Assembly (NCBI GenBank): GCA_965262745.1
Contig: OZ253558.1
Coordinates: 1,090,567-1,154,566, forward strand
Direction: 5' to 3'
DNA from: Chloroflexota bacterium
Lineage (GTDB): Bacteria; Chloroflexota; UBA11872
Length of the DNA: 64,000 nt
The notes below the pieces were generated by a model. It was not told the origin of the DNA and did no database searches. It saw nothing but the letters and a program-made list of their open reading frames with translations. Shown piece by piece: positions 11,241 to 34,093 of the stretch (positions within the stretch are counted from its first letter, which is position 1; every line of letters begins with the position of its first letter). The translations under genes were made by a program, and so were the position numbers.

Positions 11241-13655
11241 CGCTTGCAGGCGCTCGCCAAAGTAAAGGACGTCGACGGTTGTTCCTGCCGCGGCATGGTC
11301 GACGGGCAGATAGCCATACACGATGCCGCGGCTGATGGAGTGGCCGTAGTTGGCGCTGGTCGCGTAGCCCAGCACGCGGTCGCCGTCCAGGATGGGCTCC
11401 TTGCCCACGACCACGCAGCTGGAGTCGTCGAGCGTCATGCAGCACAGACGGCGCGTCAGTCCCTGCGCCCGCAATTTGCCGAGCGCCTCCCTGCCGACAA
11501 ACTCGCCTTTTCTCATCCGCACCGCGAATCCCAGGCCCGCCTCGAATGGGTTGTACTCGGTGTGGATGTCGTTTCCCCAGAGCCGGTAGCCCTTTTCCAA
11601 CCGCAGCGAGTCGAACGCGCCGCCGCCCGCGGCGATCAGGCCGAGCGGCTGGCCCGCCTCCCAGAGTGCGTCCCACAGCCGCAACCCCTGCTCGGCGGGA
11701 GCGTAGATCTCCCACCCAAGCTCGCCCACATATGAGATGCGCAGCGCCAGCGCGGGAACCCCGCCAACGGTGATCGCCTTCGCGGTCATGTAAGGGAATG
11801 CGGCGTCGCTCACGTCGTCCTCGCAGACGCGGCTGAGCACTTCTCGTGCCTTCGGTCCCCACAGACCGAGGCAGCATTGCCCCGACGAGACATCGGCCAC
11901 GCTCACCGAGCGGTCATCCGGCAGATGCGACCGGATCCAGTCCAGATCGTGCGGTCCCGTAGCTCCGGAGGTGACCACCAGGAAGCGCTCGCTGCCGAGC
12001 CGCGTAACCGTCAGGTCGCACTTGATTCCCCCGCTCGGCGTGAGCATCGGCGTGTAGGTGATCGACCCGACGGGCCTGTCCATCTGGTTGGACGCGAGTC
12101 GTTGCAGTGCCTCAAGCGCGCCGCGCCCGGTCACCTCGAACTTTGCGAATGGGCTGAGGTCGAACAGGGCCGCGCGCTCACGGGTGGCCACGTGCTCGGC
12201 CGCCACCGTCGGCGACCATTCACGCGCCGCCCAGCCGGCACGCGATTCGCCGGTGACGGGGAGTGAGTCGAGCAGGTCCCGGTTGGCGTCGTGCCACTGC
12301 GGCCGTTCCCAACCAGCGTTCTCGAAGAACACGGCGCCGAGTTCCCTTTGCCGCGCAAAGAAGGGCGTCAGCCGGATGTTCCGGGGATTGGTCGCCTGCT
12401 GCCGCGGGTGGATGATGTCGTACACCTCGCGGTATTGCTGCGCCGCCCGCGCCCGGACATAGGGACGGCTGAGCGCGTGGGGGTGGAAGCGCCTGATGTC
12501 GCACTCTCGAAGGTCGGTGGTCGGCTCGCCGTTCACGATCCACTCGGCGACCGCCTTGCCGACGCCTCCGGCGTGCGTGATCCACACGGCCTGCGCCGAC
12601 CAGAATCCGCGCACCTCGGGCGACTCGCCAAGCACAGGAAACCCGTCGGTGGTGAACGAGAACAGGCCGTTGAACTTCCGCGTCAAGCCCGCGCCCACGA
12701 GGCTGGGAAGCACCTCCCGCGCCGCCGCCATCCCACTCTCGAAGTGTTCCGGCGTGAACGACATCTCGGCCGGGGCGATGGGCGCCTCCCCGTGGTCGAG
12801 GATGTCATCCGCTTCCACAACCAGGGGTTCGTGGCGGTATGAGCCAATGCCGACGGCCTCACCCACCTGGCGGAAATACATGGACTTGTCCTGGTGGCGC
12901 ACGATCGGCAGGGAGATGTCCTCGGTGCTGCCGGTCAGGTCAGGCAGCGGCGTGGTAACCGCGTAGATGTGCTGCAGTGGCGACAGCGGTATGGGCACCC
13001 CGGCCTCGGCGCCGAGCCTCGGTGCCCAGATGCCGACGGCAGAGACCACCAGGTCTGTCGTGATGTCGCCCTGGGTGGTGTGCACCGCGGCAATGCGGCC
13101 GTCGGCGATTCCGAAGCCGGTGACCTTGACGTTGCCATGGAACGCCGCGCCGTTTCGCTCGGCCTCGCGCGCCATCGCCTCGGCCGGCCTGGTCGCGTTC
13201 GTCTGGATGTCTGAAGGGACATAGATCGCGCCCAGCACGCGCTCGGAAAGCAGCGGGAAGAGACTGCGCGCCTCGGCGGCGCTGAGCAGGTGGGCCTCTA
13301 CGCCCCAGCTCAGGCCGTAGCCGACCTTTCGTTTCAGGTCGGCGAGCCGCTCAGGAGTCCAAGCCACCTCCAGACTGCCGACGGTTTTGGCGCACGGAAC
13401 GCCGTCGAGCTCCAATTGCGACCACAGATCAACGGTGGTGCGCGCGAAGCTCGTCATGGTCTTGGAAGGGTTGACCTGGAAGACCAGTCCCGGCGCGTGA
13501 GACGTGGAACCGCCGGTTTCGAAGAGTGGGCCCTGATCGACGACAACGATGTCCCGCCACCCGAGCGTTGTCAGGTGGTAGGCCACGCTGCAACCGGCGA
13601 TCCCGGCGCCAACGACGACTGCTCTAGCGTGTCTCGGCATCATGCCGTCAGGCAC
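11187..13655 (-). CDS. Dimethylglycine/sarcosine dehydrogenase-family protein (FAD oxidoreductase N-domain plus GcvT-like C-domain)
   Basis: The 822-aa ORF has a Rossmann GxGxxG N-terminus (AVVVGAGIAGCSVAYHL) and a C-terminal aminomethyltransferase-like folate-binding domain. Confidence 0.8.
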   Translation of the reverse strand: MPDGMMPRHARAVVVGAGIAGCSVAYHLTTLGWRDIVVVDQGPLFETGGSTSHAPGLVFQVNPSKTMTSFARTTVDLWSQLELDGVPCAKTVGSLEVAWTPERLADLKRKVGYGLSWGVEAHLLSAAEARSLFPLLSERVLGAIYVPSDIQTNATRPAEAMAREAERNGAAFHGNVKVTGFGIADGRIAAVHTTQGDITTDLVVSAVGIWAPRLGAEAGVPIPLSPLQHIYAVTTPLPDLTGSTEDISLPIVRHQDKSMYFRQVGEAVGIGSYRHEPLVVEADDILDHGEAPIAPAEMSFTPEHFESGMAAAREVLPSLVGAGLTRKFNGLFSFTTDGFPVLGESPEVRGFWSAQAVWITHAGGVGKAVAEWIVNGEPTTDLRECDIRRFHPHALSRPYVRARAAQQYREVYDIIHPRQQATNPRNIRLTPFFARQRELGAVFFENAGWERPQWHDANRDLLDSLPVTGESRAGWAAREWSPTVAAEHVATRERAALFDLSPFAKFEVTGRGALEALQRLASNQMDRPVGSITYTPMLTPSGGIKCDLTVTRLGSERFLVVTSGATGPHDLDWIRSHLPDDRSVSVADVSSGQCCLGLWGPKAREVLSRVCEDDVSDAAFPYMTAKAITVGGVPALALRISYVGELGWEIYAPAEQGLRLWDALWEAGQPLGLIAAGGGAFDSLRLEKGYRLWGNDIHTEYNPFEAGLGFAVRMRKGEFVGREALGKLRAQGLTRRLCCMTLDDSSCVVVGKEPILDGDRVLGYATSANYGHSISRGIVYGYLPVDHAAAGTTVDVLYFGERLQATVANEPLYDPDGRRMKV

Positions 13656-16437: not shown

Positions 16438-17547
16438 GTGGTCCAGAGCTATGCTGATCCGCATATGGGCGCCGGCTCGGTGCCCGAGGACCCGGCCTAC
16501 CGAACCTCCGCATTGCCCGACCACCGCATCGTTCTCACCTACGACCCTGACGGGACGCTCGTCGACCGCGTCCGCGCCGCACTGCCGCACCGTTCGCTCG
16601 AGATCGTCCGGGCGCTGTCGGCGGACGCCGTGCCCGGCGCGATGCCCGGCACGACGATCTTCTTTGGCAACTACCTCGCCCCGTCGGCGCTGCGACAGGC
16701 GGGCGCGCTGCGCTGGATTCAGACGGTGGGCGCCGGCGTCGACGTGCTGCTGTCCGTCGATCTCGCGGCCACCGACATCGTCGTCACGAATACCAGCGGC
16801 GCCTTCGGCGCCCAGATAGCCGAGCACGCGCTATCGCTCATGTTCGCCCTGGCCCGTCGCCTGCCTGGCGCGCTGCGGTCGCAGGCGGCCCGGCACTACG
16901 CCCCCGAACCCCGCGATGAACTGTTCGAGCTGGCCGGCAAGACTATTGGCATCGTGGGCTTCGGCGACGTCGGCCAGGCGCTGGCGCGGCGCGCGCGTGG
17001 GATTGGCATGCGGGTAATCGCCATGCGGCGACGGCCACGCGGCTCACCTGTAGCCCACCCGTTGATACCGAATCTGCCGCTCGACCCGCTCGCCGGCTCG
17101 GACCCCGACGATCCGTCGGCACTCGCGGACGAGATCGTTGGACCCGACCGCCTGGACGACTTGCTGCGCGACTCCGACGTGGTGGTGAACGCCGCGCCGT
17201 TGACGCCCGCAACGGTGCGCCTCTTCGTCCGGGAACATTTCGCGCGCATGCGGCCGACCGCGTGCTTCATCAACGTGGGCCGCGGTGAGACGGTGGATCA
17301 GGACGCCCTCATCGACGCGCTCCGCGACGGTGTCATCGCCGGCGCCAGCCTGGATGTCACCACCCCCGAGCCGCTGCCGCCCGATTCACCCCTGTGGGCG
17401 CTGCCCAACGTGATTCTCACCGCCCACTACGCCGGCTGGTCCAACACCATGCTCGACCGCATCTACGCGATCTTCACGGACAACCTAGGCCGCTTCGATC
17501 GCGGCGATCCCCTCCGCAACCAAGTGGATGTGCGCGCCGGCTATTGA
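16438..17547 (+). CDS. D-isomer-specific 2-hydroxyacid dehydrogenase-family NAD-binding oxidoreductase
   Basis: It has the NAD-binding motif GKTIGIVGFGDVGQA and the catalytic region FINVGRGETVD...LDVTTPEPLP...LTAHYAGWS. Confidence 0.8.
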   Translation: MVQSYADPHMGAGSVPEDPAYRTSALPDHRIVLTYDPDGTLVDRVRAALPHRSLEIVRALSADAVPGAMPGTTIFFGNYLAPSALRQAGALRWIQTVGAGVDVLLSVDLAATDIVVTNTSGAFGAQIAEHALSLMFALARRLPGALRSQAARHYAPEPRDELFELAGKTIGIVGFGDVGQALARRARGIGMRVIAMRRRPRGSPVAHPLIPNLPLDPLAGSDPDDPSALADEIVGPDRLDDLLRDSDVVVNAAPLTPATVRLFVREHFARMRPTACFINVGRGETVDQDALIDALRDGVIAGASLDVTTPEPLPPDSPLWALPNVILTAHYAGWSNTMLDRIYAIFTDNLGRFDRGDPLRNQVDVRAGY

Positions 17548-17645
17548 TCAGCTCCGCGCTGGCCAGAACGGATCACCAACCTTTTCTGCGATTTGCGCGT
17601 CGGGTTCGGCAATCCGGATCCGATTCGCGACAAGCCTCAACCTGA

Positions 17646-18068
17646 TCAGTCCTCATCCGCCGTAAGGTCCCTATGTGATATCGGTGGCGTTCCGGGAACG
17701 CAGCTCCACGGTTCCCGGTGAACCTCGCTGCCATCGGCTCGGGTGATATGCCAGCTCGCGCTTTCGGGCTCAATGTCTCTGCAATGCTCAATCTTCGCCG
17801 TCCGAATGCACTTGCCGTCGAGGACATAGCTGGTCGCAGACGCGACCCTATGCATAGTTCCATCTCCCGAAATGCGATCTATGGCGAACATCCCCATCTG
17901 GATGTGTCTGTCCAGTTCGTCATCGAACGGCCGGCCATGTACTGCCTCCGCCTCGGCTACGTCGAACAACAAAACCTGTTCCACAGTGTGACCCTCGACG
18001 ATGACATCGATCCATCGCACAGTTACGCCCCGAATCTGCCCGGTTCGCTCAGTGACCTCGGCGGTCAT
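17646..18068 (-). CDS. Hypothetical protein (140 aa), last gene of the 3-gene cassette
   Basis: The ORF overlaps the upstream ADP-ribosylglycohydrolase gene by 4 nt, which suggests translational coupling. I recognise no family for it. Confidence 0.4.
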
Positions 18069-19132
18069 GACGAGTGGCGCTGGTGCAGCACAGCGGGCAA
18101 GGACTGCCGCGCGTGGTCATAGAGGCTGTCGGCCATTGACGTGATCTCCGTCGCCATCGTGAGCAAGTTTCGCCATTGCACCGGAATTGCTTCGGCTCCA
18201 TAAGTGGCGCCGGCGATCTGCCCGTAGATTGCAGCGGTGGTGTCGGCGTCGTCTCCGAGGTTTGCAGCCAGAAGAGCCCCCTCACGAAAGTCCTCGGACT
18301 TGTGAAAGGCCCAGAGAGCCGCCTCCATCGATTCCACAACGTAGCCCGTTCCTCTGATTGCTGGCGGTTCTCGATGCTTGAACGACCCGTCGGCGACGTC
18401 GGCAATCTTTTCCGCCAAGGGGCTTCTTTCCCAATGACCTTCCGCCGGGCAATAGCGTGCGGACAGGAGCGTCTTTTTGTCGACGCCACGCAACGCCCCG
18501 ACTAGCAGGCCGGAGAAGTAGCGGCAACCGTCAACTGCTTCTTCGGCCCCATGGGTGGTTCGCGAGCTATCAGCGCTTCTTCTGATTGCTTGGGAAACAT
18601 CGCCTGCAAAGTACATCGGCACCGGAGCCAGCCGCATGAGTGACCCATTACCGGCGGAATAAGGGTCGGAAGAGCCCGCAAAGGGTTCGTCGGACTCCAT
18701 GAAGCGTGACAACGCACGTGCGACGGTGTTCCCGATGTCGAAGCATGTGCCAGTGGACGAGAGATAGCCCTCATCACGCCAACGCACATAGCGTCGCATC
18801 TGGTCCATCGGGTCAAACTCGCCCCGCTCGATCAAGCTCGCGGCGAGGCACAGGGCCATGGATGTGTCGTCAGTCCACTGGCCGGGTTCTAAGTTAAACG
18901 GTCCGCCACCGATCATGTCGTCGATTGCCTGGAAAGTTCCGGGCCGATTGAACTCCAGCGTGGTGCCGAGCGCGTCACCCGCCGCTAGACCTAGCAGGCT
19001 TCCGCGAAAACGGTCCCGTGTCGCTGGCTCAGTCAAGGTCAATGATGAGGCGGCAATGGTCGCTCGGGCCCCAGTCGTCAGGACTGTTGAGGGCGTGCAC
19101 CGACACGCGGTCGGCGATGTTCTCCGTGGCAA
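18065..19132 (-). CDS. ADP-ribosylglycohydrolase (ARH/DraG-family)
   Basis: The ARH N-terminal motif is [22 protein letters not shown], and the family sequence continues in the rest of the ORF. The real start is probably downstream of 19132. Confidence 0.75.
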
Positions 19133-19826
19133 AGACGTAGTCGGCTTGCGCCCAGGCCTGCGCGGGCGTCGCGCCGATGGATTGGAAAGTCACCACATCG
19201 CCGCGGTCGCTGCGGCGCCCCTCAGGCATGACCTCGCGAAAGCCCAGCGCCTGCATCCGGTCGAAGGCTGTCTGGAAATGCAGGGCCTCGCGTTCGTTCC
19301 AGATCGTTGTCGGATGGGCACTCCAGCCTGGGTAGATGACCCAATCGCCAGCGGCAATGACGCGGCTCTGGCGGCCGACCAAGCGCGCCAGATCAGAGAT
19401 CAGCCGGTGAACCGAGCCAATGCACTCTCGGCGACTCGGCGAGCCCGACTCGCGCGTAAAGGCGTTGTACGCGGGGGCCATGGAGACGACGATAAGCGAC
19501 TCGTCTCCGTCGATCGGGTTCACTATCGCGGCTCCGAGCGTGCCCCACTCGCTCGTGTAGAAGTCGTGGCTGAAGTGATCGCCCATCGGCAGAGTCGCGA
19601 TGAAGCTGACGGAGACCCGGTTGGAAAGCCTGGCCACGACTGAGGGATACCCCAGGGAGGCGTTGTGGTGGTCGGGCCAAAGCCTGTGGTCGACTTCGAC
19701 GTCGTGACGGAGCTCGTCGGGCAGGGGTGACGCCTCCTGCAGCAGCGCAATATCGACACCGGCCATCCGGAGCAGCTCGTTCCATGATTTGCGCGAGTGC
19801 GCCATGTTCCAGCAAACGATCTTCAT
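19029..19826 (-). CDS. Endonuclease/exonuclease/phosphatase (EEP)-family protein
   Basis: The EEP start block is [15 protein letters not shown]...DIALLQEA, and the C-terminus has DH motifs ([12 protein letters not shown]). Confidence 0.7.
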
Positions 19827-20179
19827 GGGGTTCTCCCGGCAGGCAGTTCAGCATTCGTTCGACCATGGGTCCGGCCCGAGAATCCATCGTTTCCGGGCGG
19901 CCCAAGAGCCAGGCGATTGGCGTCTCGCACCTGACCCACGACGAACTCGCTGTGTGGATTGATGATGCCTACATCGTGTCATTCCTGGTTCGGACGGTTT
20001 CTCTCGCGGTACTGGAGTTCGTAGTCGAAATGCTCGATCCGAGCCATCCTGGGTTGCCCTCCCGGCAGGCGACTTGGGAGGATCACCCCGCTCCGTCGTC
20101 GCCCACGAGCCTCAATATTCGTTCGAGCGGGATCTCTGCCTGGATCTGTTCCGGGAGCTACTCACAAGTCCGATAGATC

Positions 20180-20385
20180 GCACTCACCAGGCTGTCGCCA
20201 CGCCCGAACCGCTGCCGCCGGATTCCCCCCTGTGGGCGCTGCCAAACGTGATGCTCACCGCCCACTACGCCGACTGGTCCGACACCATGCTCGACCGCAT
20301 CTACGCAATCTTCACCGACAACCTCCGCCGCTTTGATCGCGGCGAGCCCCTCCGCAACCAGCTCGACGTGCGGGCTGGATATTAG
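20180..20385 (+). pseudogene. Duplicated 3' fragment (about 65 codons) of the 2-hydroxyacid dehydrogenase gene
   Basis: Nt 20180..20385 are about 88% identical to 17345..17547. The remnant encodes PEPLPPDSPLWALPNVMLTAHYADWSDTMLDRIYAIFTDNLRRFDRGEPLRNQLDVRAGY, against the same tail in the intact gene, and ends at the equivalent stop. Confidence 0.85.
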
Positions 20386-20676: not shown

Positions 20677-21330
20677 TTAGTAGATACGCGCGAGGTTCCG
20701 CACCGCGTCCCGAAACACTTGACAGCTTTTCGATCGGTTCCTATCCACGTCCAGGAAAGGCGCTATTTGCTCAGCCCACTCAGCCTTGGCCCGCCCCATC
20801 TCGGGGTACCCCGCTCTAAGGAGCCGCGCCGATCCACCTTGGTATATGGCGTCCGCCAAAACCTCCCACGTTCCGCATATACTGTCCTGAGAGTATCTGT
20901 TCAGAACTGAATTCTTTGCGTTGGGATAGGCAGCCTTTATAGCGTCGCGATCGCCCAGTAGCCACGCCTCAATTTCCTCGATGGCGATCCTAAATACCGT
21001 TTGTGGACGCGGGTAGCATGCCTGGAGCACATTGAGCAGTTGTTGCTTGAATGACAGGCAATCTCTATCGTCCAAGTCCACAATCACCAGTACTGCCTGG
21101 CAAGATCCGAGACTCCTACCATATCCGCGCAAGAGGCGAGGCAGGTGATCCAGTAGCAGTCGCTTCGTTGGATCCGGCACACCGTACAGATTCCTCGGTA
21201 TACGACCAATACCTCGGTAGGAATGAATCCTCCACGAATGCATGGTATTATTTTGACCTAGAATCTTTTCCAGAATAGCCTTGACCGTGATACTTCCAGA
21301 TCTATCCTCAACCAATATTTCGAAATGCAC
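20677..21330 (-). CDS. DUF4276-like protein (predicted TOPRIM/OLD-like nuclease partner)
   Basis: The N-terminus reads HFEILVEDRSGSITVKAILEKILG, followed by an acidic VIVDLDD block typical of DUF4276. The likely GTG start at 21330 lies 4 nt after the ATPase stop. GC is lower than the flanks. Confidence 0.6.
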   Translation of the reverse strand: MHFEILVEDRSGSITVKAILEKILGQNNTMHSWRIHSYRGIGRIPRNLYGVPDPTKRLLLDHLPRLLRGYGRSLGSCQAVLVIVDLDDRDCLSFKQQLLNVLQACYPRPQTVFRIAIEEIEAWLLGDRDAIKAAYPNAKNSVLNRYSQDSICGTWEVLADAIYQGGSARLLRAGYPEMGRAKAEWAEQIAPFLDVDRNRSKSCQVFRDAVRNLARIY

Positions 21331-21334
21331 TTGT

Positions 21335-22618
21335 CTACTGCTGATCGAAGTAGTCGCTGTACCAGAGACCGCCAAGCGGCAGACCTTCTTCGACCAGAGC
21401 TCGGACAATATGATCGTTGCTCGCCCTAGTAATGGTCGCGAAGCCGTCCGCCGATTTCTCCAAGATCCACGTTTCCTCGGGTGTCAGAGCATCGACGAAG
21501 TAGGGTTGGTGGGTCGTGACAAATATCTGGGGCGCGTTCCGGCGCCCCGAGGCGTGGCGGCGAAACTCATCGGCCAGCAATTCCAATAGTTTGTGATAGA
21601 GACCGTTTTCCGGCTCCTCGATGCATATGAACGGCGGCGGCTGCTGATCCTCCAGCATCAGCAGATACGCAAAGACTTTGAGTGTGCCGTCGGACACTTG
21701 CTGCGCGTAGAACGGGTCAGCGAAGCCCTTATCGTTGAAGCGCAGCAGCAAGCGACCGTCAGGACTGCGTTCCGTATCGATGCGGTCGATGCCGGGAACT
21801 CTCCTGGCAATCCGTCCAAGGATGCGTTCAAACCTATCGCGGTGCTCCCGCTCCATGAATTGCACGACGTTGCCCAGATTGTCTCCGTGGATATTCAGAT
21901 GCCGCTGGGGTCCAGCCATTGGCAACCCGCGCGCGGCGTCCGGCGTAAAGTAGCTCAGATACCAGCCTTCGATAAACTGACGAAAAGCCGCGATTCTCGG
22001 ATGTTGCTTCAGTGCCCCCAGGGTTGCAATACCCAGCTTGCGCTTGTCCTGAAGTTCAATAATCTCCCGTCCCGCGCCCTCCTCGTTTTCTAACCCTCTC
22101 AGTAGCGCTGAAAGGTCCACTTCCAGTCGGCCATCTTCATCGACCTGCAAACCCTGCACCTCGCCTGCCCAGGCCATTCCCTTGCCCTCGTTCAGCATCA
22201 AGAACGAAAATGGCCAGCCGCGTCTCTGTCCTCGACGACGCTGGCGCAGGCGTTCGCGTGAAACATAGGGGCGGCCCGAATCGTCCTTGTCGATCGCAAA
22301 TTCGTATGTGATCGGTCGAGCCTTCGAATCCTGCCGGTAATAGACCTCGAACTCGATGGGGGTGTCGCTACCCTGTGATCGTATGCGGTCGAACCCGCCG
22401 CGCCCACGCACGTCGCAGGCCTCTTCGACACCGAGCTTCAGGCAATCCGCCAGGAATCCGAAAGCATCGAATAGGGAGCTCTTGCCAACCCCGTTCTTTC
22501 CAATCACCGCCGTCAGCGGCTCTAACGGCTGGGCGGCAGGCGTGTTCCACAGCTTGCCTAGGGTGATGTCGTGCAACACCCGGTAGTTCCTGATGCCGAT
22601 GCCTTCGATACGGGCCAT
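21335..22618 (-). CDS. AAA_21/ABC-type ATPase (OLD/AbiL/PARIS-AriA-like ATPase component)
   Basis: There is a Walker A (GKNGVGKSSLFDAF) near the N-terminus, and a distal signature/Walker B region (FICIEEPENGLYHKLL...VTTHQP). Confidence 0.75.
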   Translation of the reverse strand: MARIEGIGIRNYRVLHDITLGKLWNTPAAQPLEPLTAVIGKNGVGKSSLFDAFGFLADCLKLGVEEACDVRGRGGFDRIRSQGSDTPIEFEVYYRQDSKARPITYEFAIDKDDSGRPYVSRERLRQRRRGQRRGWPFSFLMLNEGKGMAWAGEVQGLQVDEDGRLEVDLSALLRGLENEEGAGREIIELQDKRKLGIATLGALKQHPRIAAFRQFIEGWYLSYFTPDAARGLPMAGPQRHLNIHGDNLGNVVQFMEREHRDRFERILGRIARRVPGIDRIDTERSPDGRLLLRFNDKGFADPFYAQQVSDGTLKVFAYLLMLEDQQPPPFICIEEPENGLYHKLLELLADEFRRHASGRRNAPQIFVTTHQPYFVDALTPEETWILEKSADGFATITRASNDHIVRALVEEGLPLGGLWYSDYFDQQ

Positions 22619-22788
22619 GCGGTCAGTTTCTCTCGTTTAGCGCAGCACCGCTAGCAGCATAGCGTCGAGCAGGCTTGTTTCCACTGCCGCGAGGACAGAG
22701 AGCGGATAGGGCGTTGGCCAAGCGCCCGCGGTCGACGTCGCGGACCTTCTCGGGCCTCCAACAGATTGCGCACTGTCGCCACTTCGAA

Positions 22789-22835
22789 TGGTGCCCAGGA
22801 CGGGACTGGAACCCGCACAGCCCGGAGGCCACCAG
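22789..22835 (-). other. tRNA 3'-end remnant (variable arm, T-arm, acceptor 3' strand and CCA), a probable island att-site duplicate
   Basis: The reverse complement (tggcctccgggctgtgcgggttccagtcccgtcctgggcacca) matches the 3' 45 nt of the intact tRNA-Leu at 35720..35803 with 3 mismatches. The 5' part does not fold as a tRNA. Confidence 0.6.
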
Positions 22836-23031
22836 ACCCTAAACCGAGGTCAACCCACCGCCAGGCACTGCCGCAGCGCCTTGACCATGGCCGGTCGCTG
22901 CTCACGGCTCCTCGTGCCGACCGGATTGGCGATCGCCCGCATCACGACCTGTTGATCGGACGCTGAGAAGCGTAATCCCCGGCGCTGCTCCGCGGATGCC
23001 TGATACCCGCCACAGCCTCTGTCGCCCTGCA

Positions 23032-26000
23032 CTACGCGGGTGTGAGCGGGCTCTCAGCCTCGTCGTGGGCCATTTCAAACAGCCGCGCCAGGGCGTTGGC
23101 CAGGTGCATTTGGCGGGGCGTGCGGCAGCGCACGGCGAGCAAGCCCGGACTGGCCACGACTACCGCCAGGCACTTGGCGCGGCTGGTGGCGACGTTCAAG
23201 CGGTTGAGGCTGTAGAGAAACTCCATGCCACGCGGCGCCTCGTCGGCAGAGCTTGTGGCCATCGAGTAGATGGAAATCGGGGCTTCCTGGCCTTGGAACT
23301 TATCGACAGTGCCGATTCGCAACTCCCGGAGCTCAGGTCGGGATGCAAGCTCCCCGATCTGGCGGTTGTAGGGCGTGATGATGAGCACGTCTTGAGCGGT
23401 CAGCGCGTGGGTCGCGCCTTCGGCGTCAGTCCATGAGGCGCGCGACCGGAGCAACCGGTCGACGCTCTCGGCAATCGCCGCCGCCTCTTCCTCGGAGTCG
23501 CTGATGCGGCGCTCGTGCGACACGGCCACGAAGCGCAGTCCTGTCCCGAGGAACGGGGACGAGCCGGCCAGGTCCAAGTTCTCGCGGCCGGGATGCGCGC
23601 GCAGGTTGTCCTCGTAGAAGACTTCCGAGGTGAACTCACAGATGCTGGGATGCAGGCGCCACGTGCCGTCGAGAAACAGTCCGAAGTCCTTGGGCATCAC
23701 TCGTGCGTCATCGAGTACGTGCGCCAGCACCGAACGATCCGCGCCTGGCGGATGCACGCCCTGCAGCGGCTGATCCAGCTGCTGCGGGTCGCCCAGCAGC
23801 AACAGGCTCTTGGCGCAACGTGCCGAGGCCAAGGCGTCGGCCAGCGACATCTGCCCGGCCTCGTCGATGCAGAGCACGTCCACCAAGCCCTCCGCGTCGT
23901 CACGCGCCCAGAGCCAGGAAGTTCCGCCCACCACGTCAAGCGTTCCTCTGGCCAGGGCCATGCACGCATCCTCGGTTTTCGCGAGGGGTACCGCGTCCGC
24001 GAATTCGGGCTCGGCTGACCGGTAGCGGGTCCGCTGGCCGATCCTGACCGGGACGCCGCGCTCGCGGGCCACCCGCGCCGTCTTCTCCAGCAACTCACCG
24101 ATCACCTTGTGGCTGTTGGCCGTCACGCCCACGCGCTTACCCGCCTCCACGAGGTCCACGATCATCTCGGCACCAACCGTGCTCTTGCCCGAGCCGGGCG
24201 GTCCCTGGATCGCCAGGTAGCTCTCGTCCAGCATCTGCACCAGCCGCCGGGCCGCATCCTGCGCATCCTCGCCGTCCGCCGTCAGCGGTGATCCGTCGGT
24301 CTGTCCAACCCGTGGCGGACAGCGCATCAACAGGTCTCGGGCCGCCTGGTACGGCCCGGGCGCGTCGATCCCGTGCTCAATCACCCACGTCGCCAGATTC
24401 CGAAGGCTCGACGGTTTTGGCCCTGGATTGACATATTCGTAGGCGATCAGTGATGTCGGCGCCGGTGCTGCCCGGTTGGACCCAACCTTCAGGTCGATCA
24501 CGCCGTCTCGATCGTTTACCGCGACCACTTCGCCGATCGAATTTCCGTGCTGATCGCGTGGCCGGTCGCCGACTTCGATCTTGTGGTCCTGTGGCGGGAA
24601 CCGAAAGCTGTAGATCTTGGAACGCGACTTGGGCCTGGGATCGGCCCGACTGCGCACGTAGCTGAGCTGGCCCAGCGCGTCCGTCTCGCCGACTCGCTCT
24701 TCGTCGGTGAGTTCGTCCTTCAGGTGGAAATAGCGCCACCAGAACGCCTTATCCTCGCGCCGGTGCCAGTCGAGCAGCTGCGCCAGGAGCCACCGCCCGC
24801 GTTGGCTCGGATCTTCGAGCGACCTGCCGTCCGTCAAGTCCTCGGGCAGGCCCGCTGTCAGCTGGGCCACGAGTTCCTGCACCTCCCGCTGGGCCTCCGT
24901 GTCCTCGGTCTCTTCGGGAGGCTTGACCGTAGGACGCGGCGGGGCTTCGGCGCCGACTTCGTTCACCAGCGCGGCGCGCTGGACTTCCAGCCACTCGCGC
25001 AGATAGCAGGTGGAAAGACAGTCGTCGCGGTTATAGGCCCTGATCTTCTCCAGCAGGCCGTCCCGGTCGGTCCCGTCCTCGGGTTCGAGCCAGTTCTCGA
25101 ACTCCACGATGCTCTCGCCCGCATCGCGTAGATCGATTTCCCGCTTGAATCCGTAGAGCGGCTCCAGCCGCTTGATGGAGTAGCTCTCCACCGAAGCGCG
25201 AACGCCCTGCCGCACGACGCGGTAGAGGTCCACGAACACACTGCCCCGCAGCAGCTGGTCCACCTCTGACTCACGCGTGGCGTAGCGCCCCGCCAGCCGC
25301 TTCATTGCCCCTGTCTCGTAGGGCGCGTAGTGATAGACGTGCATGTCCGGGTGGCCAGTCCGGCGCTCCATGATGAGGTCGATACAGTCCTCGAACGCCT
25401 TACGCTCGGCCGCCGGCGACACGGTGCCGTCCGCGATCGACCAGAACGCGTGAAACCTGGGGTCGCCCGCGGCGTCCGTCTGTCCCGGCTCGATCACGCC
25501 GAAGAGGTAGTCGATGCCGTCGATCTCGTCCGAGCCATAGAACGGATCGCCCTCCAGGTCCAGGAACAGGTCACCGGGCGACGGCTCCGGCAACAGCCAG
25601 AGACCGCGGTCCGGAACAACCACGTCCTCGCGGTCGCGTTCGGGCGGGATGCGCTCCGAGATCACCTGGCCTTCGCCGCGCACCTGGATCGCCGCCTGGG
25701 CCTGCACCCGGGCCAGCGAAACCGGGCTGACGCCGTCCAGCTGTTCCGGCAGCGGCCGCGACGGATCGGCCAGCCCACCCCGTGTGGTCACGTCAATGGC
25801 GTGCAGGGCGCGTCGCTGGCGGGACGTCAGGTTGGCCACCAACGCCAGATCGTCTTCCCGACGCCACTGGGCTCGGCATTCCTGGTTCCACCTGCAGAAG
25901 TCGCAGTGCTGCATGGGTTCCGGCTTGGTCGAGATTGGAAACGCCGATTCGGAGTCGTCGAGCAGCGTCTCGAACTGCCGCGCGACCAGGCGGTAGTAGG

Positions 26001-26577
26001 CCCCGTAGTCGGCGACCCGAAGGCTCGCGGTCCTGCGCGCGACGCCGCCCAGCACCAGATGCATCCGTTCCGGCGGCCGCCCCTGCATTCTCCCGAGCAG
26101 GTCTGAATACATGCTGATCTGCAAGACGGCGGGGGCCGTGGGTTGCCGCGCCAGCTTGGTGTCCCAGACTTCATAGCTCCATGCCCCGAGGTCGCTGGGT
26201 TTCTCGACGCGGCGCAGGAAGTCCGCGTACCCCAGCCGCCGGTCGCCGAGCAGCACGGCCTGGTAGATCACGTCAACGCCATCTCGCATCGCCTGCAGCG
26301 TGGCGGCGTGCTCGGATTCAACCACTCGGGACGGAGACACGGTGTCGGGCGGCCGGATTTCCCTGATTCCCAGGTTCTCGGCGTCCAGCGATTCCAGGAA
26401 GCGCGCCTCATACTCCCGACCGCGCCGCGCCAAACGGTCGAGCACTGGGTCGTCACGAAACGGCCGTTTGAGGTCATGCAGAACCGCGGCGCGCTCCAGG
26501 TTGGCCAGGTGCCGGCACTCCAGGAACGCGACCAGATCGGTGGCGGAGTAGACCAGACGCCTATCAATCAGTTGCAT
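23032..26577 (-). CDS. RecB-like nuclease + RNaseH-like domain + SF1 (Upf1/Dna2-like) helicase fusion protein (TM0106-family N-terminal region)
   Basis: The 1181-aa ORF has an N-terminal RecB/Cas4-like region with a Cys cluster (HCDFCRWNQEC). It has a C-terminal Walker A (GPPGSGKST), a Walker B (CIDEAGQ) and SF1 motifs (GDPQQL, VATSRAK). Confidence 0.7.
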   Translation of the reverse strand: MQLIDRRLVYSATDLVAFLECRHLANLERAAVLHDLKRPFRDDPVLDRLARRGREYEARFLESLDAENLGIREIRPPDTVSPSRVVESEHAATLQAMRDGVDVIYQAVLLGDRRLGYADFLRRVEKPSDLGAWSYEVWDTKLARQPTAPAVLQISMYSDLLGRMQGRPPERMHLVLGGVARRTASLRVADYGAYYRLVARQFETLLDDSESAFPISTKPEPMQHCDFCRWNQECRAQWRREDDLALVANLTSRQRRALHAIDVTTRGGLADPSRPLPEQLDGVSPVSLARVQAQAAIQVRGEGQVISERIPPERDREDVVVPDRGLWLLPEPSPGDLFLDLEGDPFYGSDEIDGIDYLFGVIEPGQTDAAGDPRFHAFWSIADGTVSPAAERKAFEDCIDLIMERRTGHPDMHVYHYAPYETGAMKRLAGRYATRESEVDQLLRGSVFVDLYRVVRQGVRASVESYSIKRLEPLYGFKREIDLRDAGESIVEFENWLEPEDGTDRDGLLEKIRAYNRDDCLSTCYLREWLEVQRAALVNEVGAEAPPRPTVKPPEETEDTEAQREVQELVAQLTAGLPEDLTDGRSLEDPSQRGRWLLAQLLDWHRREDKAFWWRYFHLKDELTDEERVGETDALGQLSYVRSRADPRPKSRSKIYSFRFPPQDHKIEVGDRPRDQHGNSIGEVVAVNDRDGVIDLKVGSNRAAPAPTSLIAYEYVNPGPKPSSLRNLATWVIEHGIDAPGPYQAARDLLMRCPPRVGQTDGSPLTADGEDAQDAARRLVQMLDESYLAIQGPPGSGKSTVGAEMIVDLVEAGKRVGVTANSHKVIGELLEKTARVARERGVPVRIGQRTRYRSAEPEFADAVPLAKTEDACMALARGTLDVVGGTSWLWARDDAEGLVDVLCIDEAGQMSLADALASARCAKSLLLLGDPQQLDQPLQGVHPPGADRSVLAHVLDDARVMPKDFGLFLDGTWRLHPSICEFTSEVFYEDNLRAHPGRENLDLAGSSPFLGTGLRFVAVSHERRISDSEEEAAAIAESVDRLLRSRASWTDAEGATHALTAQDVLIITPYNRQIGELASRPELRELRIGTVDKFQGQEAPISIYSMATSSADEAPRGMEFLYSLNRLNVATSRAKCLAVVVASPGLLAVRCRTPRQMHLANALARLFEMAHDEAESPLTPA

Positions 26578-26723
26578 CGCCGATTCACCAGCCCGTCCCC
26601 ATGGCCGACGGCTTCACCCCGGCCACGCGTGCGATCAGCGCGAGCGCGTTGCCAACATACTCCGCGAGGCGACACCGGGCCAGATTGTGGGCCGCCTGCC
26701 GCGGCATGAAGCTGGGGCGACGC

Positions 26724-27452
26724 TCACAGCGGCAGCAGGTGCCCCGCTTCGCGCAGCCGCTGACGCCGCTGTTGCGCGTCCGGCATCGCTCTAACCACCA
26801 GCCCCCAGAAGTCCGGCCCGTGGTTCTTTATTGACAGGTGCGCCAGCTCGTGCACCACGATGTACTCGACAAGGGCAGGCTCCAACATCATCGCCCGCCA
26901 GTTGAAGCGCAGCGTGCCGTCCGGCGCGCAGCTCCCCCAGCGCCGGCGTTGATCGCGGATCAGCACGCGCGGCCAGTCGCCGTGACCCAGGCGCGGCCAC
27001 CAGCGCTCCACGCTAGTTGGCAGGCGGTCTGCCGCCCGCCTCCGATACCAGGCCACGAGGGCGCGCTGGGCACTGCGGGTTCGCTCACTATCGGACGCCC
27101 CCGTTGGCACCGTGACGCGGAACCGCCAGTGATCGAAGCGCACGCTCACCGACCTGACGTCGGCGTGCTCGACCAGCAAACGCACGTTGCGGCCCAGGTA
27201 AGGCAACGTCTCACCGCTCACAAAGCGCTTCGGCGCGGCGGCCAGCGTCTCCGCGGTGCTGCGGCGCATGATCCAGGCCGCCCGCTTGCGCACGATCCCC
27301 CGCAACTCCTCGGCGGGCGTCGAAACAGGCGCGGCGACCTGGACCCCGCCCCCGTCCACGGTGATCTGCACCGTCTTCCTGCGCCGCTGACTGCGCTGCA
27401 CCTCGAACTCGATCGTGCTCTCGCCGAAACGGACGGATCCCCGCTCACTCAC
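26724..27452 (-). CDS. DUF45/YgjP-like M48-type zinc metallohydrolase
   Basis: The HExxH motif (VVHELAHL) sits in a YgjP-like context. The ORF overlaps the hsdR stop by 4 nt. Confidence 0.65.
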   Translation of the reverse strand: MSERGSVRFGESTIEFEVQRSQRRRKTVQITVDGGGVQVAAPVSTPAEELRGIVRKRAAWIMRRSTAETLAAAPKRFVSGETLPYLGRNVRLLVEHADVRSVSVRFDHWRFRVTVPTGASDSERTRSAQRALVAWYRRRAADRLPTSVERWWPRLGHGDWPRVLIRDQRRRWGSCAPDGTLRFNWRAMMLEPALVEYIVVHELAHLSIKNHGPDFWGLVVRAMPDAQQRRQRLREAGHLLPL

Positions 27453-30400
27453 GATCCCGACCTCTGACGCGCCACGTCCACGATCTGGTGCGCCAGCTCG
27501 TCCAAGCGCTCTTCCGTGAAGTCCCCCGTGCCTCGCAGCTCCCGCTTGATATCCCGGCGCATCTCGCGCTGCACTTCAAGGTTCGACTGCCAATCGATCA
27601 CGTCGCTGTGACGCTGGATGGCGCGTTCGATCGCGCGCGCCACGGCCGTCGTCTGCTCGTCCAGGGCAGTGCGATAGGAGCCTGAAGCTTCGCCCGCGTC
27701 CACGCTCGGAGAGGCCAGCAACTCGTAGACCGCAAACGACACTGGCGAGAGCCCGTGCTGCGCGGCGATGTCCGCTTCGCTTTGGACCTGCTTGCGCAAT
27801 TCGGCCAGTCGCCGGCAGGCCTCGGCAGCGTCGATCAGCCGCTGACGCAGTTCCTGGATGATGCGGTCCAATTGCTCCGAGAGCTTCTCATAGAACGCCG
27901 GGTTTTCCGCCAGTCGCTCGTTGATCTGGGCGCGGACCGCGTGCTCCATCAGCGACGCCCGCGCTTCGTCGTGCGGCAGGTCGGCAATCTTCGCCTCGAA
28001 GTCCTGATCCAGGATCGAGAGCGGCTGCATCAGGCTGCGCACCTTGGCGTCGATGCGCTCGTCGATCAGGCCCTTCACCTTCGCGCCAATATCGGTCCAA
28101 TCCAACTCCGCGTCCTCGCGCAGGAACTGCGCCCGCACATAGGCGCGAATCGCCGTCAGCCGCGCCAACCGCTGTACGTAGGGCTCGGCGCCCGGGTCCG
28201 GCAGGTAGCGGTCCATCAGGCGGGCGAACTGACGGTAGTCCGCGCTGAATCGCTCGAACAGGTCGGCCTTGAACGCGTCCTCCGAGGCGGCATCCGGCGC
28301 AAACAGCGCCGCGCAGTCCCACACGTTGCTCAGGTCGCGGCCCTTGAAGTGCGACTCCGCCTGCACCGCCGCGGCCTCGATCGCCGGCCCGGGATCCTCC
28401 TCCAGCTCGCGCATGGAGTCCTGCACGTCTGGCCAGTCGAACGTCGCCAGCGCCGCCTCCAGGTCCCGCGAGACCCCGTGATAGTCGATCACCAGGCCGT
28501 GCCGCTTCTCCGTGTCCACGTTGTCCGGCCGGTGCGCGAAGCGCCGGTTCACGCGGGCAATCGCCTGCAGCAGGCCGTGTTCCCGCAGCCCACGGTCCAG
28601 GTAGAGCACCTGCTCCACCGGCGCGTCAAACCCGGTCAGCAGCATGTCCACCACCACCAGGATCTGCGGCTCGCCCTCGGGGTCCACGAACGCGCCGGTG
28701 ATCTGCTCCTGGTTGAGATCGCGCGCCGCGGCGAACTCCGGGCCGTCGTTGTTATCGGTGGTGATGATCGGATAGGCGCTCAGCCCAAAGGTCTTCAGGC
28801 GCTCCGCGTAGCGCAGCGCCGCCGCCCGGCTGGGCGCCACCACCTGCGCCTTGAACCCGTTCGGCTGCACCTTGGCCTTGAAGTGCTGGGCAATATCCAG
28901 CGCGATCATCTCGATGCGACGCTCCGCCTCCGCCACCGTCTCCTTGTTCGCGTAGCGCCGCCGGATGCGCGCCTGCGTCTCCTCGGACTCCTGGCCGAAC
29001 ATCTCCTCGAACAGCGTGTCCAGCGTCTCCGGCCCCTCGATGTGCAGTTCCGGCAGCCGCGCCTCGTAGAGGATCGGCACGGTGGCGCCGTCGGCGACCG
29101 ACTGCGGAATCGTGTAGGAGTCGATCAGCGAACCGAATCGCCGCATCGTGCTGTGACCGAAGTCCTTGTCGATGGGCGTGCCCGTAAAGCCGATCAGCGC
29201 TGCGTTGGGAAGGGCCTTGGACATGCGCGCGCCCAGCAATCCGTATTGCGTGCGGTGCGCCTCGTCCACCATCACCACCACCTGCTCCGATGGGTTCAGC
29301 ACATCCAGCCGGCCCTTGGGAGTCGTCAGCGCGTCCTCGAACTTCTGGATTGTCGTCATCACCGTGCGGCCGCCGCCGCTTCTCAGCAGCCGGCGCAGGT
29401 TGCGGGCGTTGGTCGCCTGCTCAGGCGCCGGAAAGCCGCAGCGTTGGAAGGTGCCGCTGATCTGCCGGTCCAACTGCGTGCGGTCGGTCACCACCACGAT
29501 CGTCGGGTTGTGCAGCCGCGGCTCGCGCCGCAGCTTGGTGGCCAGCCACAGCATCGTCAGCGACTTGCCCGAGCCCTGCGTGTGCCACACCACCCCGCCG
29601 CGCTCCTCGGGACGGCGGCCCGTCAACAATCGCTCCAGCGCCGCTCGCACCGCGCGGTACTGCTGATAGCGCGGCAGCTTCTTCACCAGCTTGCCGGCCT
29701 GCGGCTCGTAGACCACGTAGTCGCGCAGGATGTCCAGTAGCGTGGCCGGCGCCAGCAGCCCCACGATCAGCCGCGCCTGGCCCTCTGGTTCCACCCCGAA
29801 GCGCTGCCGCGCCTCGGCTTCCGAATAGGGCAGCACCGACTTCCATTCCACGTAGGCGTTCTCGGGCGCGCCCAGCGTCGCGTACGCCGCCGCGGCTCCG
29901 CAGTGCGCCACGCACAGCAGGTTGGTGTGGAACAGCTCCGGCGCGCCCGTCCCGTGCCACTCGGGCCCCGCTTCTTGGTAGCGACGCAGCTGGCGCACCG
30001 CCTGCGTCCGCCACACGTCCAGCAGCGACGGCGATTTCGCCTCCATCACCACCAGCGGCACGCCGTTCACGAACAACACCAGGTCCGGCTTCACCACCCG
30101 CTGGTCGTCTTCCTGGTTGCGCCGCTCGTTACCCCGACGCACCCGGAACTGCGTCGTCACCACGAACTCGTTCAGCCCGCCCTCCGGATGATCGAAGTCG
30201 AAGAAGCGCGCAATCCGGCTCTGGCGACCACTGGGCGTGTCCACCCCCAGCGGCATGCCGTAGATCAGGTGCTCGTGCACGCGCTGATTGCGGGCCATGC
30301 CGCTGAAGTCGCTGCGCTCCAGATCAGCCACCACCCAGTCCGCCTGCGACTCGGTCATCCAGGCGTTCAACCGCAGCAACGCCCGCCGCAACCGCCCCTT

Positions 30401-30538
30401 TAGCAACACCTCCCGCTCGTCCCCGCGCTCCGCCGCCAGCGTTTCGCGTGGGACGTACGTCCAGCCCAGTCTTTCAAGCAGCTCCCGCGCCGGGTTCTCG
30501 GCGTGATGGAGCTCATTGAGCCTGGCGGGAGTGGTCAT
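27449..30538 (-). CDS. hsdR: Type I restriction enzyme R subunit (HsdR)
   Basis: The 1029-aa ORF has helicase motifs (DEAHRTQ, FTGTP) in HsdR-type architecture. It lies in an operon with hsdS and hsdM. Confidence 0.9.
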   Translation of the reverse strand: MTTPARLNELHHAENPARELLERLGWTYVPRETLAAERGDEREVLLKGRLRRALLRLNAWMTESQADWVVADLERSDFSGMARNQRVHEHLIYGMPLGVDTPSGRQSRIARFFDFDHPEGGLNEFVVTTQFRVRRGNERRNQEDDQRVVKPDLVLFVNGVPLVVMEAKSPSLLDVWRTQAVRQLRRYQEAGPEWHGTGAPELFHTNLLCVAHCGAAAAYATLGAPENAYVEWKSVLPYSEAEARQRFGVEPEGQARLIVGLLAPATLLDILRDYVVYEPQAGKLVKKLPRYQQYRAVRAALERLLTGRRPEERGGVVWHTQGSGKSLTMLWLATKLRREPRLHNPTIVVVTDRTQLDRQISGTFQRCGFPAPEQATNARNLRRLLRSGGGRTVMTTIQKFEDALTTPKGRLDVLNPSEQVVVMVDEAHRTQYGLLGARMSKALPNAALIGFTGTPIDKDFGHSTMRRFGSLIDSYTIPQSVADGATVPILYEARLPELHIEGPETLDTLFEEMFGQESEETQARIRRRYANKETVAEAERRIEMIALDIAQHFKAKVQPNGFKAQVVAPSRAAALRYAERLKTFGLSAYPIITTDNNDGPEFAAARDLNQEQITGAFVDPEGEPQILVVVDMLLTGFDAPVEQVLYLDRGLREHGLLQAIARVNRRFAHRPDNVDTEKRHGLVIDYHGVSRDLEAALATFDWPDVQDSMRELEEDPGPAIEAAAVQAESHFKGRDLSNVWDCAALFAPDAASEDAFKADLFERFSADYRQFARLMDRYLPDPGAEPYVQRLARLTAIRAYVRAQFLREDAELDWTDIGAKVKGLIDERIDAKVRSLMQPLSILDQDFEAKIADLPHDEARASLMEHAVRAQINERLAENPAFYEKLSEQLDRIIQELRQRLIDAAEACRRLAELRKQVQSEADIAAQHGLSPVSFAVYELLASPSVDAGEASGSYRTALDEQTTAVARAIERAIQRHSDVIDWQSNLEVQREMRRDIKRELRGTGDFTEERLDELAHQIVDVARQRSGS

Positions 30539-30906
30539 GGGCTCTCCCCGCGGGAGTCCTCCAACATCTTTCGCAGCTGCGGCAGCATGCTTGGGATCGC
30601 ATCTTGAATTATCGACCAGATGATGACGTCACTGATGTGCAAATAGGAGTGCGCCAAGCGATTGCGGACCCCGATGATTGCGCGCCAGGGAATCATGGGA
30701 TATGCCTCACGCGCGTCGGATGGGATATGCGTTGCCGCCTCACCGATCAGTTGGATGTTGCGCAACGTGGCGTCGTGGATGAGACCGTCGGCTGCGAAGG
30801 CGTCCTGATCCAGTCCATCCGTATATGACAGGACTTTCTCGGCGAACTCGATCATGTCCTGAACGTAAAGATTCCAGCGTCGACCTTCTTCATGGGTCTC
30901 ACACAT
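30535..30906 (-). CDS. HepT-like (DUF86) toxin of a HepT/MNT toxin-antitoxin pair
   Basis: The RX4HXY-like motif is present (RNRLAHSY). The start at 30906 overlaps the MNT stop by 8 nt. Confidence 0.65.
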   Translation of the reverse strand: MCETHEEGRRWNLYVQDMIEFAEKVLSYTDGLDQDAFAADGLIHDATLRNIQLIGEAATHIPSDAREAYPMIPWRAIIGVRNRLAHSYLHISDVIIWSIIQDAIPSMLPQLRKMLEDSRGESP

Positions 30907-31216
30907 CCACGGCCTCCCGTTCCACGTGCGGACGCATTTCGGCCCGAACGTCCTCCCGGGTCGCCAGTTCCACCGGTCGTTGCAGCAGGTCTTCCAGGTA
31001 GAACTGGGCTCCGAAGTAGGTCCGCCAGTTCGGAGGAGCGTCGAACCGCACCAGGATGTCAACGTCGCTCCCGTCGGTACCTTCGTCCCGGGCATAGGAG
31101 CCGAACAGGGCGAGATCCGCGACGCCGAATCGCTCCGCCAGCACCGGCCGGTGGGCTCGGAGCATCTCCAGCACTTCCGCTCTGGTCATGGCGTCACTCC
31201 GTCGAGGCGGGCGCAT
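30899..31216 (-). CDS. MNT-type nucleotidyltransferase antitoxin (PF01909-like)
   Basis: The 105-aa ORF has the GS...D.D nucleotidyltransferase motif (LFGSYARDEGTDGSDVDILV). Confidence 0.75.
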   Translation of the reverse strand: MRPPRRSDAMTRAEVLEMLRAHRPVLAERFGVADLALFGSYARDEGTDGSDVDILVRFDAPPNWRTYFGAQFYLEDLLQRPVELATREDVRAEMRPHVEREAVDV

Positions 31217-31924: not shown

Positions 31925-31927
31925 GCG

Positions 31928-34011: not shown

Positions 34012-34093
34012 GAGTTCCCGCCAGTGTTCATGGCCAAGCCGCTCACGCCATCGCGCCCATTCGGCTCATCAGGCACGGTCATGACCGGCTGCA

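Follow-up and report, generated by a model that had tools for sequence, protein, structure and literature searches.

We analysed a 64,000-nucleotide stretch of a Chloroflexota bacterium genome (contig OZ253558.1, positions 1,090,567 to 1,154,566 of the forward strand; hereafter the window), which carries on its reverse strand two adjacent genes, HEC-01A and HEC-01B. HEC-01A (21335..22618, minus strand) starts with ATG and encodes a 427-aa ATP-binding cassette (ABC)-type ATPase of the AAA_21/AAA_15, SMC/RecF-like kind. HEC-01B (20677..21330, minus strand) starts with GTG and encodes a 217-aa DUF4276 protein, predicted from its sequence to be a metal-dependent nuclease effector of the Toprim superfamily. 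The name HEC-01 stands for 'Hma-embedded candidate 01', an ABC ATPase plus TOPRIM protein found inside Hma systems (Payne et al., bioRxiv 10.1101/2024.01.29.577857). An earlier note on this DNA, made without database searches, had described the pair as a split OLD/PARIS/AbiL-like two-gene defence candidate. Here we show that the two-gene ATPase/TOPRIM-like pairing holds as a defence candidate, supported by PADLOC and by 80/80 loci, and that the pair is the already known HEC-01 and not OLD, Gabija, PARIS or AbiL.

Structure and composition of the gene pair

The ATPase gene stops with TAG (21337..21335), which is followed by ACAA and then by the GTG at 21330, leaving a spacer of 4 nt as described in the earlier note. 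Judging from this spacing, HEC-01A and HEC-01B may be translationally coupled. From the GTG, the small protein begins with (M)HFEILVED, and VIVDLDD occupies residues 81-87. The GTG at 21330 is the supported start because most homologues are 216-222 aa long and begin at MHFE. A 243-aa version starting from TTG at 21408, which is the longest open reading frame (ORF) and overlaps the ATPase gene, was rejected since the homologues begin at MHFE.

The pair is foreign in composition and was horizontally acquired. The GC content is 58.5% for HEC-01A and 52.4% for HEC-01B versus 65.9% for the window, which bears out the earlier remark that it lies below the background, and the GC content at third codon positions (GC3) is 69% and 57%, respectively, versus 83-90% for backbone genes. 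Scanning around the pair for promoters and terminators gave counts not above those in shuffled sequence, and the E. coli-type consensus, the only one used, gave no sigma-70-like match upstream of the ATPase gene. Cassette-like terminal repeats flanking the pair were also looked for, and none was convincing.

Assignment to HEC-01

Profile searches placed both proteins in HEC-01 over their full length. In PADLOC, whose profiles the earlier note had proposed as a check, the ATPase matched PDLC04182 (HEC-01A) at 1.6e-190 (631 bits; residues 1-426 of 427, profile positions 1-402 of 406), and the small protein matched PDLC04205 (HEC-01B) at 1.1e-89 (298 bits; residues 1-212, profile positions 1-211 of 213). 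In Pfam, the ATPase matched AAA_21 at 1.6e-42 over model positions 1-304 of 304, with a secondary AAA_15 match. The small protein matched DUF4276 (PF14103) at 9.4e-11 over profile positions 1-186 of 192, and its 42.7 bits exceed the gathering cut-off of 30.2 bits, so that the DUF4276 signature (HFEILVED...VIVDLDD) previously read from the N-terminus was correctly recognised. All 50 of 50 HEC-01B homologues also matched DUF4276 in Pfam, and searching NCBIfam with the small protein gave no match.

The remaining PADLOC defence models on the ATPase (AriA, AbiLi, mad3, PtuA and ATPase-Toprim) were far weaker and covered the generic ATPase core only. Short matches to the ATPase motifs were obtained with ATPase-Toprim_I-B (4.9e-11) and AriAB (1.7e-08) of PADLOC and with the retron Eco8 effector of NCBIfam (6.8e-07). 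Since the pair agreed with HEC-01 in every sequence-defined feature tested, it is, by sequence, a member of HEC-01 and not a new candidate; the system is already known because it has been catalogued and is recovered by a standard PADLOC run. Within HEC-01, the pair belongs to a particular, highly conserved subtype (PDLC04182/PDLC04205).

The labels in PADLOC-DB looked inconsistent, as PDLC04144, labelled 'HEC-01B', matched the ATPase (3.3e-95), and PDLC04143, labelled 'HEC-01A', matched the small protein (7.2e-12). The A and B names appear to be swapped for one HEC-01 subtype in this database.

Conserved motifs and candidate active site

The Walker A motif GKNGVGKSS recognised in the earlier note lies at residues 40-48 of the ATPase (G40..G45-K46-S47). 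It is followed by the signature S309-D-G-T, the Walker B/catalytic segment I331-C-I-E334-E335-P-E337 and the H-loop T368-T-H370. These motifs stand in the canonical ABC order and were invariant or nearly so in an alignment of 50 ATPase sequences.

For HEC-01B, 68 sequences with 33-63% identity to the window protein were aligned. Only E8, D85, D87, E121, W123 and K182 were invariant, while E119 and D127 were nearly invariant. The candidate catalytic residues are E8, D85-x-D87 and E119/E121. An AlphaFold2 (AF2) model of HEC-01B reached a predicted local distance difference test score (pLDDT) of 74 and a predicted template modelling score (pTM) of 0.76, with the order strand 2-7, helix, strand 31-37, helix, strand 78-84, helix and strand 115-117. 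In this model E8 directly follows strand 1, and D85-L-D87 directly follows strand 3. The Toprim signature consists of a conserved Glu after strand 1 and a DxD after strand 3 (PMC12065111), and the alignment together with the AF2 secondary structure placed the residues of HEC-01B in this way.

Two published analyses point in the same direction. DUF4276 and RloB have been classed as new members of the Toprim superfamily, with Mad4 as a DUF4276 homologue (PMC12065111), and HEC-01B was described as structurally TOPRIM-like with a metal-binding site common to the B. pseudomallei OLD protein (Payne et al., bioRxiv 10.1101/2024.01.29.577857). HEC-01B is accordingly a predicted Toprim protein on the basis of this motif and topology agreement and of the two published analyses. 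The Pfam model OLD-like_TOPRIM did not match the window protein, and among 50 homologues only 1/50 reached E = 0.16. Relatives of the OLD-type Toprim amounted to five fragments in the homologue search, with none in tblastn of plasmids and none among the loci examined.

Co-conservation, distribution and selection

Homologues of HEC-01B gave 4,837 matches among 90%-identity clusters and 1,021 clusters at 50% identity (E <= 1e-3), and homologues of HEC-01A gave at least 8,000 matches. Species-representative genomes were scanned, and 80 loci with a HEC-01B homologue of 58-75% identity were obtained. An ATPase homologue (61-87% identity) lay directly upstream on the same strand in 80/80 loci, and the co-conservation check suggested in the earlier note was thereby passed. 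The alignment gap between the ATPase and HEC-01B was at most 19 nt in 78/80 loci. The exceptions were a decayed copy with the ATPase in two fragments (residues 4-242 and 338-426) in different frames (L030, 8997..9990), and a locus with a 654-nt gap from the ATPase gene to the DUF4276 gene (L043, 9348..10000). With thousands of homologues and 80/80 conserved loci, the pairing is far beyond chance.

The metagenome-assembled genome (MAG) labels among these loci comprised Chloroflexota, Acidobacteriota, Alpha-, Gamma- and Deltaproteobacteria, Nitrospirales, Bacillota, Verrucomicrobia, Bacteroidales, Binatia and one Promethearchaeota archaeon (L062). On our unverified impression, many of these names recall marine sponge-symbiont or sediment assemblies. 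The subtype spans eight or more bacterial phyla plus an archaeal MAG at 58-87% identity, which indicates recent and wide horizontal transfer. Three mobile-element records also show the ATPase followed by DUF4276, namely the conjugative Pseudomonas plasmid pGLE121P3 (70% and 50% identity), Synechocystis pSYSM (36% and 26-28%) and a phage-labelled contig that is unverified (48% and 42%).

Regarding the other island genes of the window, the helicase was found beside the pair in 0/80 loci, HsdM in 2/80 and the rest in none. The immediate neighbours across loci were varied and included housekeeping genes, other AAA_15/21 ATPases, PIN and STAND proteins. Because the island genes of the window do not recur and the neighbours vary, the pair is an autonomous, horizontally mobile two-gene cassette.

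A sister genome was represented by European Nucleotide Archive (ENA) contigs 2.69 and 3.69 Mb in length (loci L081 and L082), whose backbone blocks share 92-96% DNA identity with the window. It carries the pair with 98% identity for the ATPase and 97.7% for the DUF4276 protein. The ratio of nonsynonymous to synonymous substitution rates (dN/dS) against L081 was 0.09 for HEC-01A and 0.25 for HEC-01B, and both genes are therefore under purifying selection. In L081/L082, the intact DUF4276 gene (11289..11939, GTG start) was missing from the called genes of the public collection; therefore GTG-started HEC-01B genes may be under-annotated.

Remnant of an Hma system

The largest cluster of neighbours comprised 15 loci, mostly immediately upstream of the pair and on the same strand, and corresponded to HmaB, a DUF1156 DNA-adenine methylase (PADLOC, ~1e-112). 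In roughly 12-15 of the 80 loci HmaB lay immediately upstream, in line with the discovery of HEC-01 inside Hma systems; HmaA was present further upstream as well in one locus (L025), and in most loci the pair occurs without Hma. For most loci, DNA similarity to the window ends where the two coding sequences end. In 13 HmaB loci, the similarity extends 100-155 nt upstream of the ATPase start.

This extension corresponds to a frameshifted segment of ~145 nt at 22627..22772 (minus strand) in the window, a pseudogene remnant of the hmaB 3' end with 70-80% nucleotide identity to the 3' end of the upstream gene in the 13 loci. One of its frames reads '...RLANALSAL...' and another 'LLDAMLLAVLR*', and intact HmaB proteins end with '...LRLANALSALYPS.SEEKRLLDAMLLAVPR*'. 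Since the translations match the ends of intact HmaB, the window keeps the frameshifted last ~45 codons of hmaB directly upstream of HEC-01A. No intact hma gene was found in the window; embedding in Hma, the setting in which HEC-01 came to light, is not demanded by the PADLOC model. The cassette was therefore probably once embedded in, or acquired with part of, an Hma system which has since been lost.

In a Nitrospirales MAG (L058, 5465..14285), ATPase modules were stacked downstream of hmaB: first HEC-01 of the window subtype, then an NsnB-like (Menshen) ATPase and a 155-aa ORF, and last another HEC-01 pair whose subtype differs (PDLC04175/PDLC04188), with a prokaryotic Argonaute (pAgo)/SIR2-like fragment upstream.

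Genomic layout around the pair

An intact tRNA-Leu(gag) gene is located at 35718..35803, and a 59-nt copy of its 3' part at 22790..22848 (minus strand) is 86% identical to 35718..35776, forming an att-like direct repeat. The copy aligns to tRNA-Leu from the anticodon stem to the acceptor end, and it marks the boundary between a tRNA-anchored helicase/restriction-modification (R-M) island and the HEC-01 segment. Starting from tRNA-Leu, the order is the R-M block, the nuclease-helicase gene, the 59-nt tRNA copy, the hmaB remnant, HEC-01A, HEC-01B, a copy of the 3' end of a dehydrogenase gene, a 2.64-kb insertion and the intact dehydrogenase gene. Neighbouring the pair are genes of a type I R-M system, a helicase gene and a dehydrogenase gene.

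The type I R-M block (26648..35717, 9.07 kb) lies beside tRNA-Leu in the window and is missing from the sister genome. It contains hsdM, hsdS, hsdR and a YgjP-like peptidase gene, and embedded in the block are a 262-aa ORF of no known family, a Hypoth_Ymh/HEPN protein resembling PD-Lambda-3_B (6e-18) and an MntA (30899..31216)/HepT (30535..~30900) pair. The MntA/HepT pair is bracketed by a 121-nt duplication of the hsdR 5' end (30409..30529 and 31241..31361; 83% identical). The nuclease-helicase gene (23032..26577) encodes 1181 aa with RNase_H_2 (RecB-like) and superfamily 1 (SF1) helicase (AAA_11/AAA_12) domains, and in both genomes it has tRNA-Leu on one side and the 59-nt tRNA fragment on the other. 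Its PADLOC matches were Mokosh MkoA and MkoC only, partial and restricted to the helicase domain. A three-gene system including this helicase was rejected, with 0/80 co-occurrences. The R-M block with its MntA/HepT and HEPN-like Hypoth_Ymh genes and the nuclease-helicase gene, immediately upstream of the pair, agree with its earlier placement on the flank of a defence island.

On the other side, the HEC-01 segment is bounded, given here for context, by a 197-nt duplicate of the 3' end of a 2-hydroxyacid dehydrogenase gene (20187..20383, plus strand), which is 88% identical to 17349..17545. These direct repeats flank the 2.64-kb insertion (17546..20186), which is present in the window and missing from the sister genome, where the dehydrogenase 3' end is single-copy and directly follows HEC-01B. 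The insertion encodes a 140-aa ORF of no known family, an ADP-ribosylglycohydrolase and an EEP-family protein, and neither an integrase nor PADLOC matches were found in it. Because the sister-genome comparison and the repeats in the window give this layout, the pair stands on the margin of a defence hot spot that is anchored at a tRNA gene and changes rapidly. In this genome the cassette is probably what survives of an Hma system that decayed, and it occupies a hot spot linked to tRNA-Leu, next to a type I R-M island.

Discussion

Compared with HEC-01 as catalogued, the gene order (ABC ATPase, then DUF4276/TOPRIM) is the same, a link to Hma is seen in the hmaB neighbours of related loci and the hmaB remnant of the window, and nothing essential differs; what is particular here is that the Hma host is reduced to a 3' pseudogene fragment and that the cassette resides in the tRNA-Leu-linked island beside type I R-M. 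MADS also contains, in MAD3-MAD4, an AAA_15/21 ABC ATPase with a DUF4276-type Toprim protein, and MADS3-4 and AbiL have been grouped with the systems in which a TOPRIM nuclease accompanies an AAA15/21 ABC ATPase (PMC11464382). However, the window ATPase scored 79 bits on NCBIfam MAD3 against a cut-off of 420 bits, and 5e-20 on PADLOC mad3; the mad4 model was absent from the PADLOC matches of the small protein, and no MADS model was found on the ten neighbouring proteins scanned.

PARIS consists of the ABC ATPase AriA and the DUF4435 Toprim nuclease AriB, and likewise divides an ATPase and a small Toprim-type effector between two genes. Its ATPase is sensor and scaffold, and the released nuclease cleaves tRNA. 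By this analogy PARIS may be regarded as the best mechanistic analogue of the window pair. It differs in that the window effector is a DUF4276 protein with no DUF4435/AriB match in Pfam or PADLOC, and the AriA match of the window ATPase (PDLC02980, 1.5e-38) covers only the generic AAA_21/AAA_15 core, versus 1.6e-190 for HEC-01A. AbiL (AbiLi ATPase and AbiLii RloB-like Toprim) and RloA/RloB also combine an AAA_21-type ATPase with a small Toprim-superfamily protein, whereas here the AbiLi match was partial (4.1e-22) and the small protein had no RloB/AbiLii match in Pfam or PADLOC. OLD and Gabija GajA are anti-phage proteins in which an ABC-type ATPase is joined to a Toprim nuclease with a conserved Glu and DxD metal site, but their ATPase and Toprim parts are fused, with the GajB helicase added in Gabija, whereas the window has two separate ORFs. 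Because the models specific to OLD, Gabija, PARIS and AbiL do not fit, the pair lies outside these systems; most likely it is related to PARIS, MADS3-4, AbiL and OLD and is a member of none of those four.

We consider the pair to be probably (roughly 0.8) a defence module of the HEC-01 family whose DUF4276 nuclease is regulated by ATP and which is directed against phages or other mobile elements. By analogy with PARIS AriA/AriB, OLD and Gabija, the ABC ATPase HEC-01A would act as sensor and regulator and hold the small Toprim-type nuclease HEC-01B inactive. A cue from an invading phage or plasmid would be recognised, and ATP binding or hydrolysis would then free or activate HEC-01B. The acidic cluster of HEC-01B would bind Mg2+/Mn2+ and might cleave tRNA (as in PARIS) or DNA (as in OLD/Gabija), so that the infection would be halted, probably at the cost of the cell (abortive). 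Of the possible forms of this module, a PARIS-like sequester-and-release mechanism and an OLD/Gabija-like DNA-nicking complex carry about equal weight, the former slightly more, and each is less likely than not.

Several points weigh against this defence module. To our knowledge, neither a biochemical activity nor a structure has been reported for an HEC-01 or DUF4276 protein, and the trigger, substrate and outcome for HEC-01 are all inferred, by analogy. In E. coli, a tested HEC-01 representative did not protect against any of the phages tried (Payne et al., bioRxiv 10.1101/2024.01.29.577857). In favour of defence, a cold-seep preprint reports that E. coli B carrying an HEC-01 representative was protected from at least one of T4, T5 and T7; this sole positive report of protection is a single preprint result at the level of a spot assay, with a different representative.

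The structural comparisons belong to the same side. The AF2 confidence of HEC-01B was low over residues 40-120. Foldseek of the HEC-01B model against PDB gave nothing significant (best E 0.13; GajA 8wy4 at rank 26 with E = 0.59), and against BFVD an RloB-like protein at rank 11 was not significant (E = 0.23). Using hhalign, a diverse DUF4276 alignment matched the Toprim region of P2 Old marginally, with E = 0.0068 and a probability of 5.6% over the first 43 columns only; this covers just the first beta-alpha-beta unit, in the correct register, with LVED placed on LVEG (the catalytic Glu). No hhalign match was obtained between DUF4276 and the Toprim of E. coli YbjD. Sequence and profile searches of PDB with HEC-01B found no real match, and those with HEC-01A found P-loop-level matches only (SMC1, an OLD-family protein and Rad50). 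The AF2 model of HEC-01A, with a pLDDT of 41, was of insufficient quality for confirming the fold, and a shallow alignment is the probable cause.

A more specific possibility is that HEC-01 guards methylation-based immunity in a PARIS-like manner, with the ATPase sensing phage anti-restriction or anti-methylase proteins and unleashing the DUF4276 nuclease on tRNA or DNA. The recurrent position right after hmaB and the survival beside type I R-M after the loss of Hma would fit this possibility, which we regard as unlikely. If it were true, DUF4276 would be a second, independently recruited Toprim effector for anti-restriction-triggered defence, spreading across phyla almost unchanged.

The defence module has also to be weighed against readings in which the pair is not an autonomous immune system. 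It could be a toxin-antitoxin (TA) or addiction module stabilising an island or plasmid, with the DUF4276 nuclease as toxin, the ATPase as antidote or regulator and no dedicated anti-phage role. The Pfam text for AAA_21 ('putative AbiEii toxin, Type IV TA system'), the occurrence of the pair on plasmids and islands among TA genes (e.g. pSYSM), the 4-nt distance of the genes and the one heterologous test without phage protection all speak for it. We give this little credence, since the ATPase is more conserved than the putative toxin (61-87% versus 58-75% identity), which is unusual for an antitoxin, phage protection was seen in one preprint, and the related two-gene ATPase plus Toprim systems PARIS and AbiL are abortive-infection defences; moreover, addiction and defence roles overlap and are not mutually exclusive. 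That the pair serves as an accessory of the neighbouring 1181-aa nuclease-helicase or of the type I R-M system, as MAD3-MAD4 does inside MADS or RloA/RloB inside type I R-M loci, appears quite improbable. The pair does adjoin the helicase gene in the window and in the sister genome, HEC-01 is often embedded in Hma, and the ATPase is weakly MAD3-like (79 bits in NCBIfam; 5e-20 for PADLOC mad3), but that score is far under the 420-bit cut-off, the helicase lies beside the pair in 0/80 other loci and HsdM in 2/80, the sister genome keeps the pair without the whole R-M block, the tRNA fragment and the hmaB pseudogene stand between pair and helicase, and the neighbours across loci are varied, housekeeping genes included.

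Two further readings would remove the pair from active immunity. It might be an inactive relic decaying after the loss of Hma, given that upstream there is only the frameshifted 145-nt hmaB remnant, that no sigma-70-like promoter match (E. coli-type consensus only) was found upstream of the ATPase and that decayed copies such as L030 exist elsewhere. Both ORFs are intact with all conserved motifs present, the sister-genome comparison gives dN/dS values of 0.09 and 0.25, and most loci lack Hma, as Payne et al. expected of independently functioning cassettes, which makes a relic very improbable. A housekeeping or DNA-repair role resembling RecF/RecR would follow the same domain logic, an SMC-like ABC ATPase with a Toprim protein, and weak matches to Pfam SMC_N and to the P-loops of NCBIfam RecF/SbcC, together with PDB profile matches to SMC1 and Rad50 in the P-loop region only, may be cited for it. 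This is hardly credible given that the repair-protein matches are limited to the P-loop, that the distribution is patchy across phyla at 60-87% identity, and that the pair shows foreign GC and GC3, plasmid carriage, variable contexts and decayed copies such as L030.

In conclusion, the gain from this locus is modest because it is one more instance of a catalogued candidate system. It provides an independent and quantitative confirmation that the HEC-01 ATPase and the DUF4276 protein are inherited as a unit, in 80/80 loci and on plasmids too. The conserved HEC-01 subtype with its short list of invariant residues (K46 and E335 in the ATPase; E8, D85, D87, E121 and K182 in the DUF4276 protein) is a reasonable starting point for biochemistry. 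The hmaB fragment indicates that a cassette embedded in another system can persist once that system is gone, in support of the idea of 'guilt-by-embedding'.

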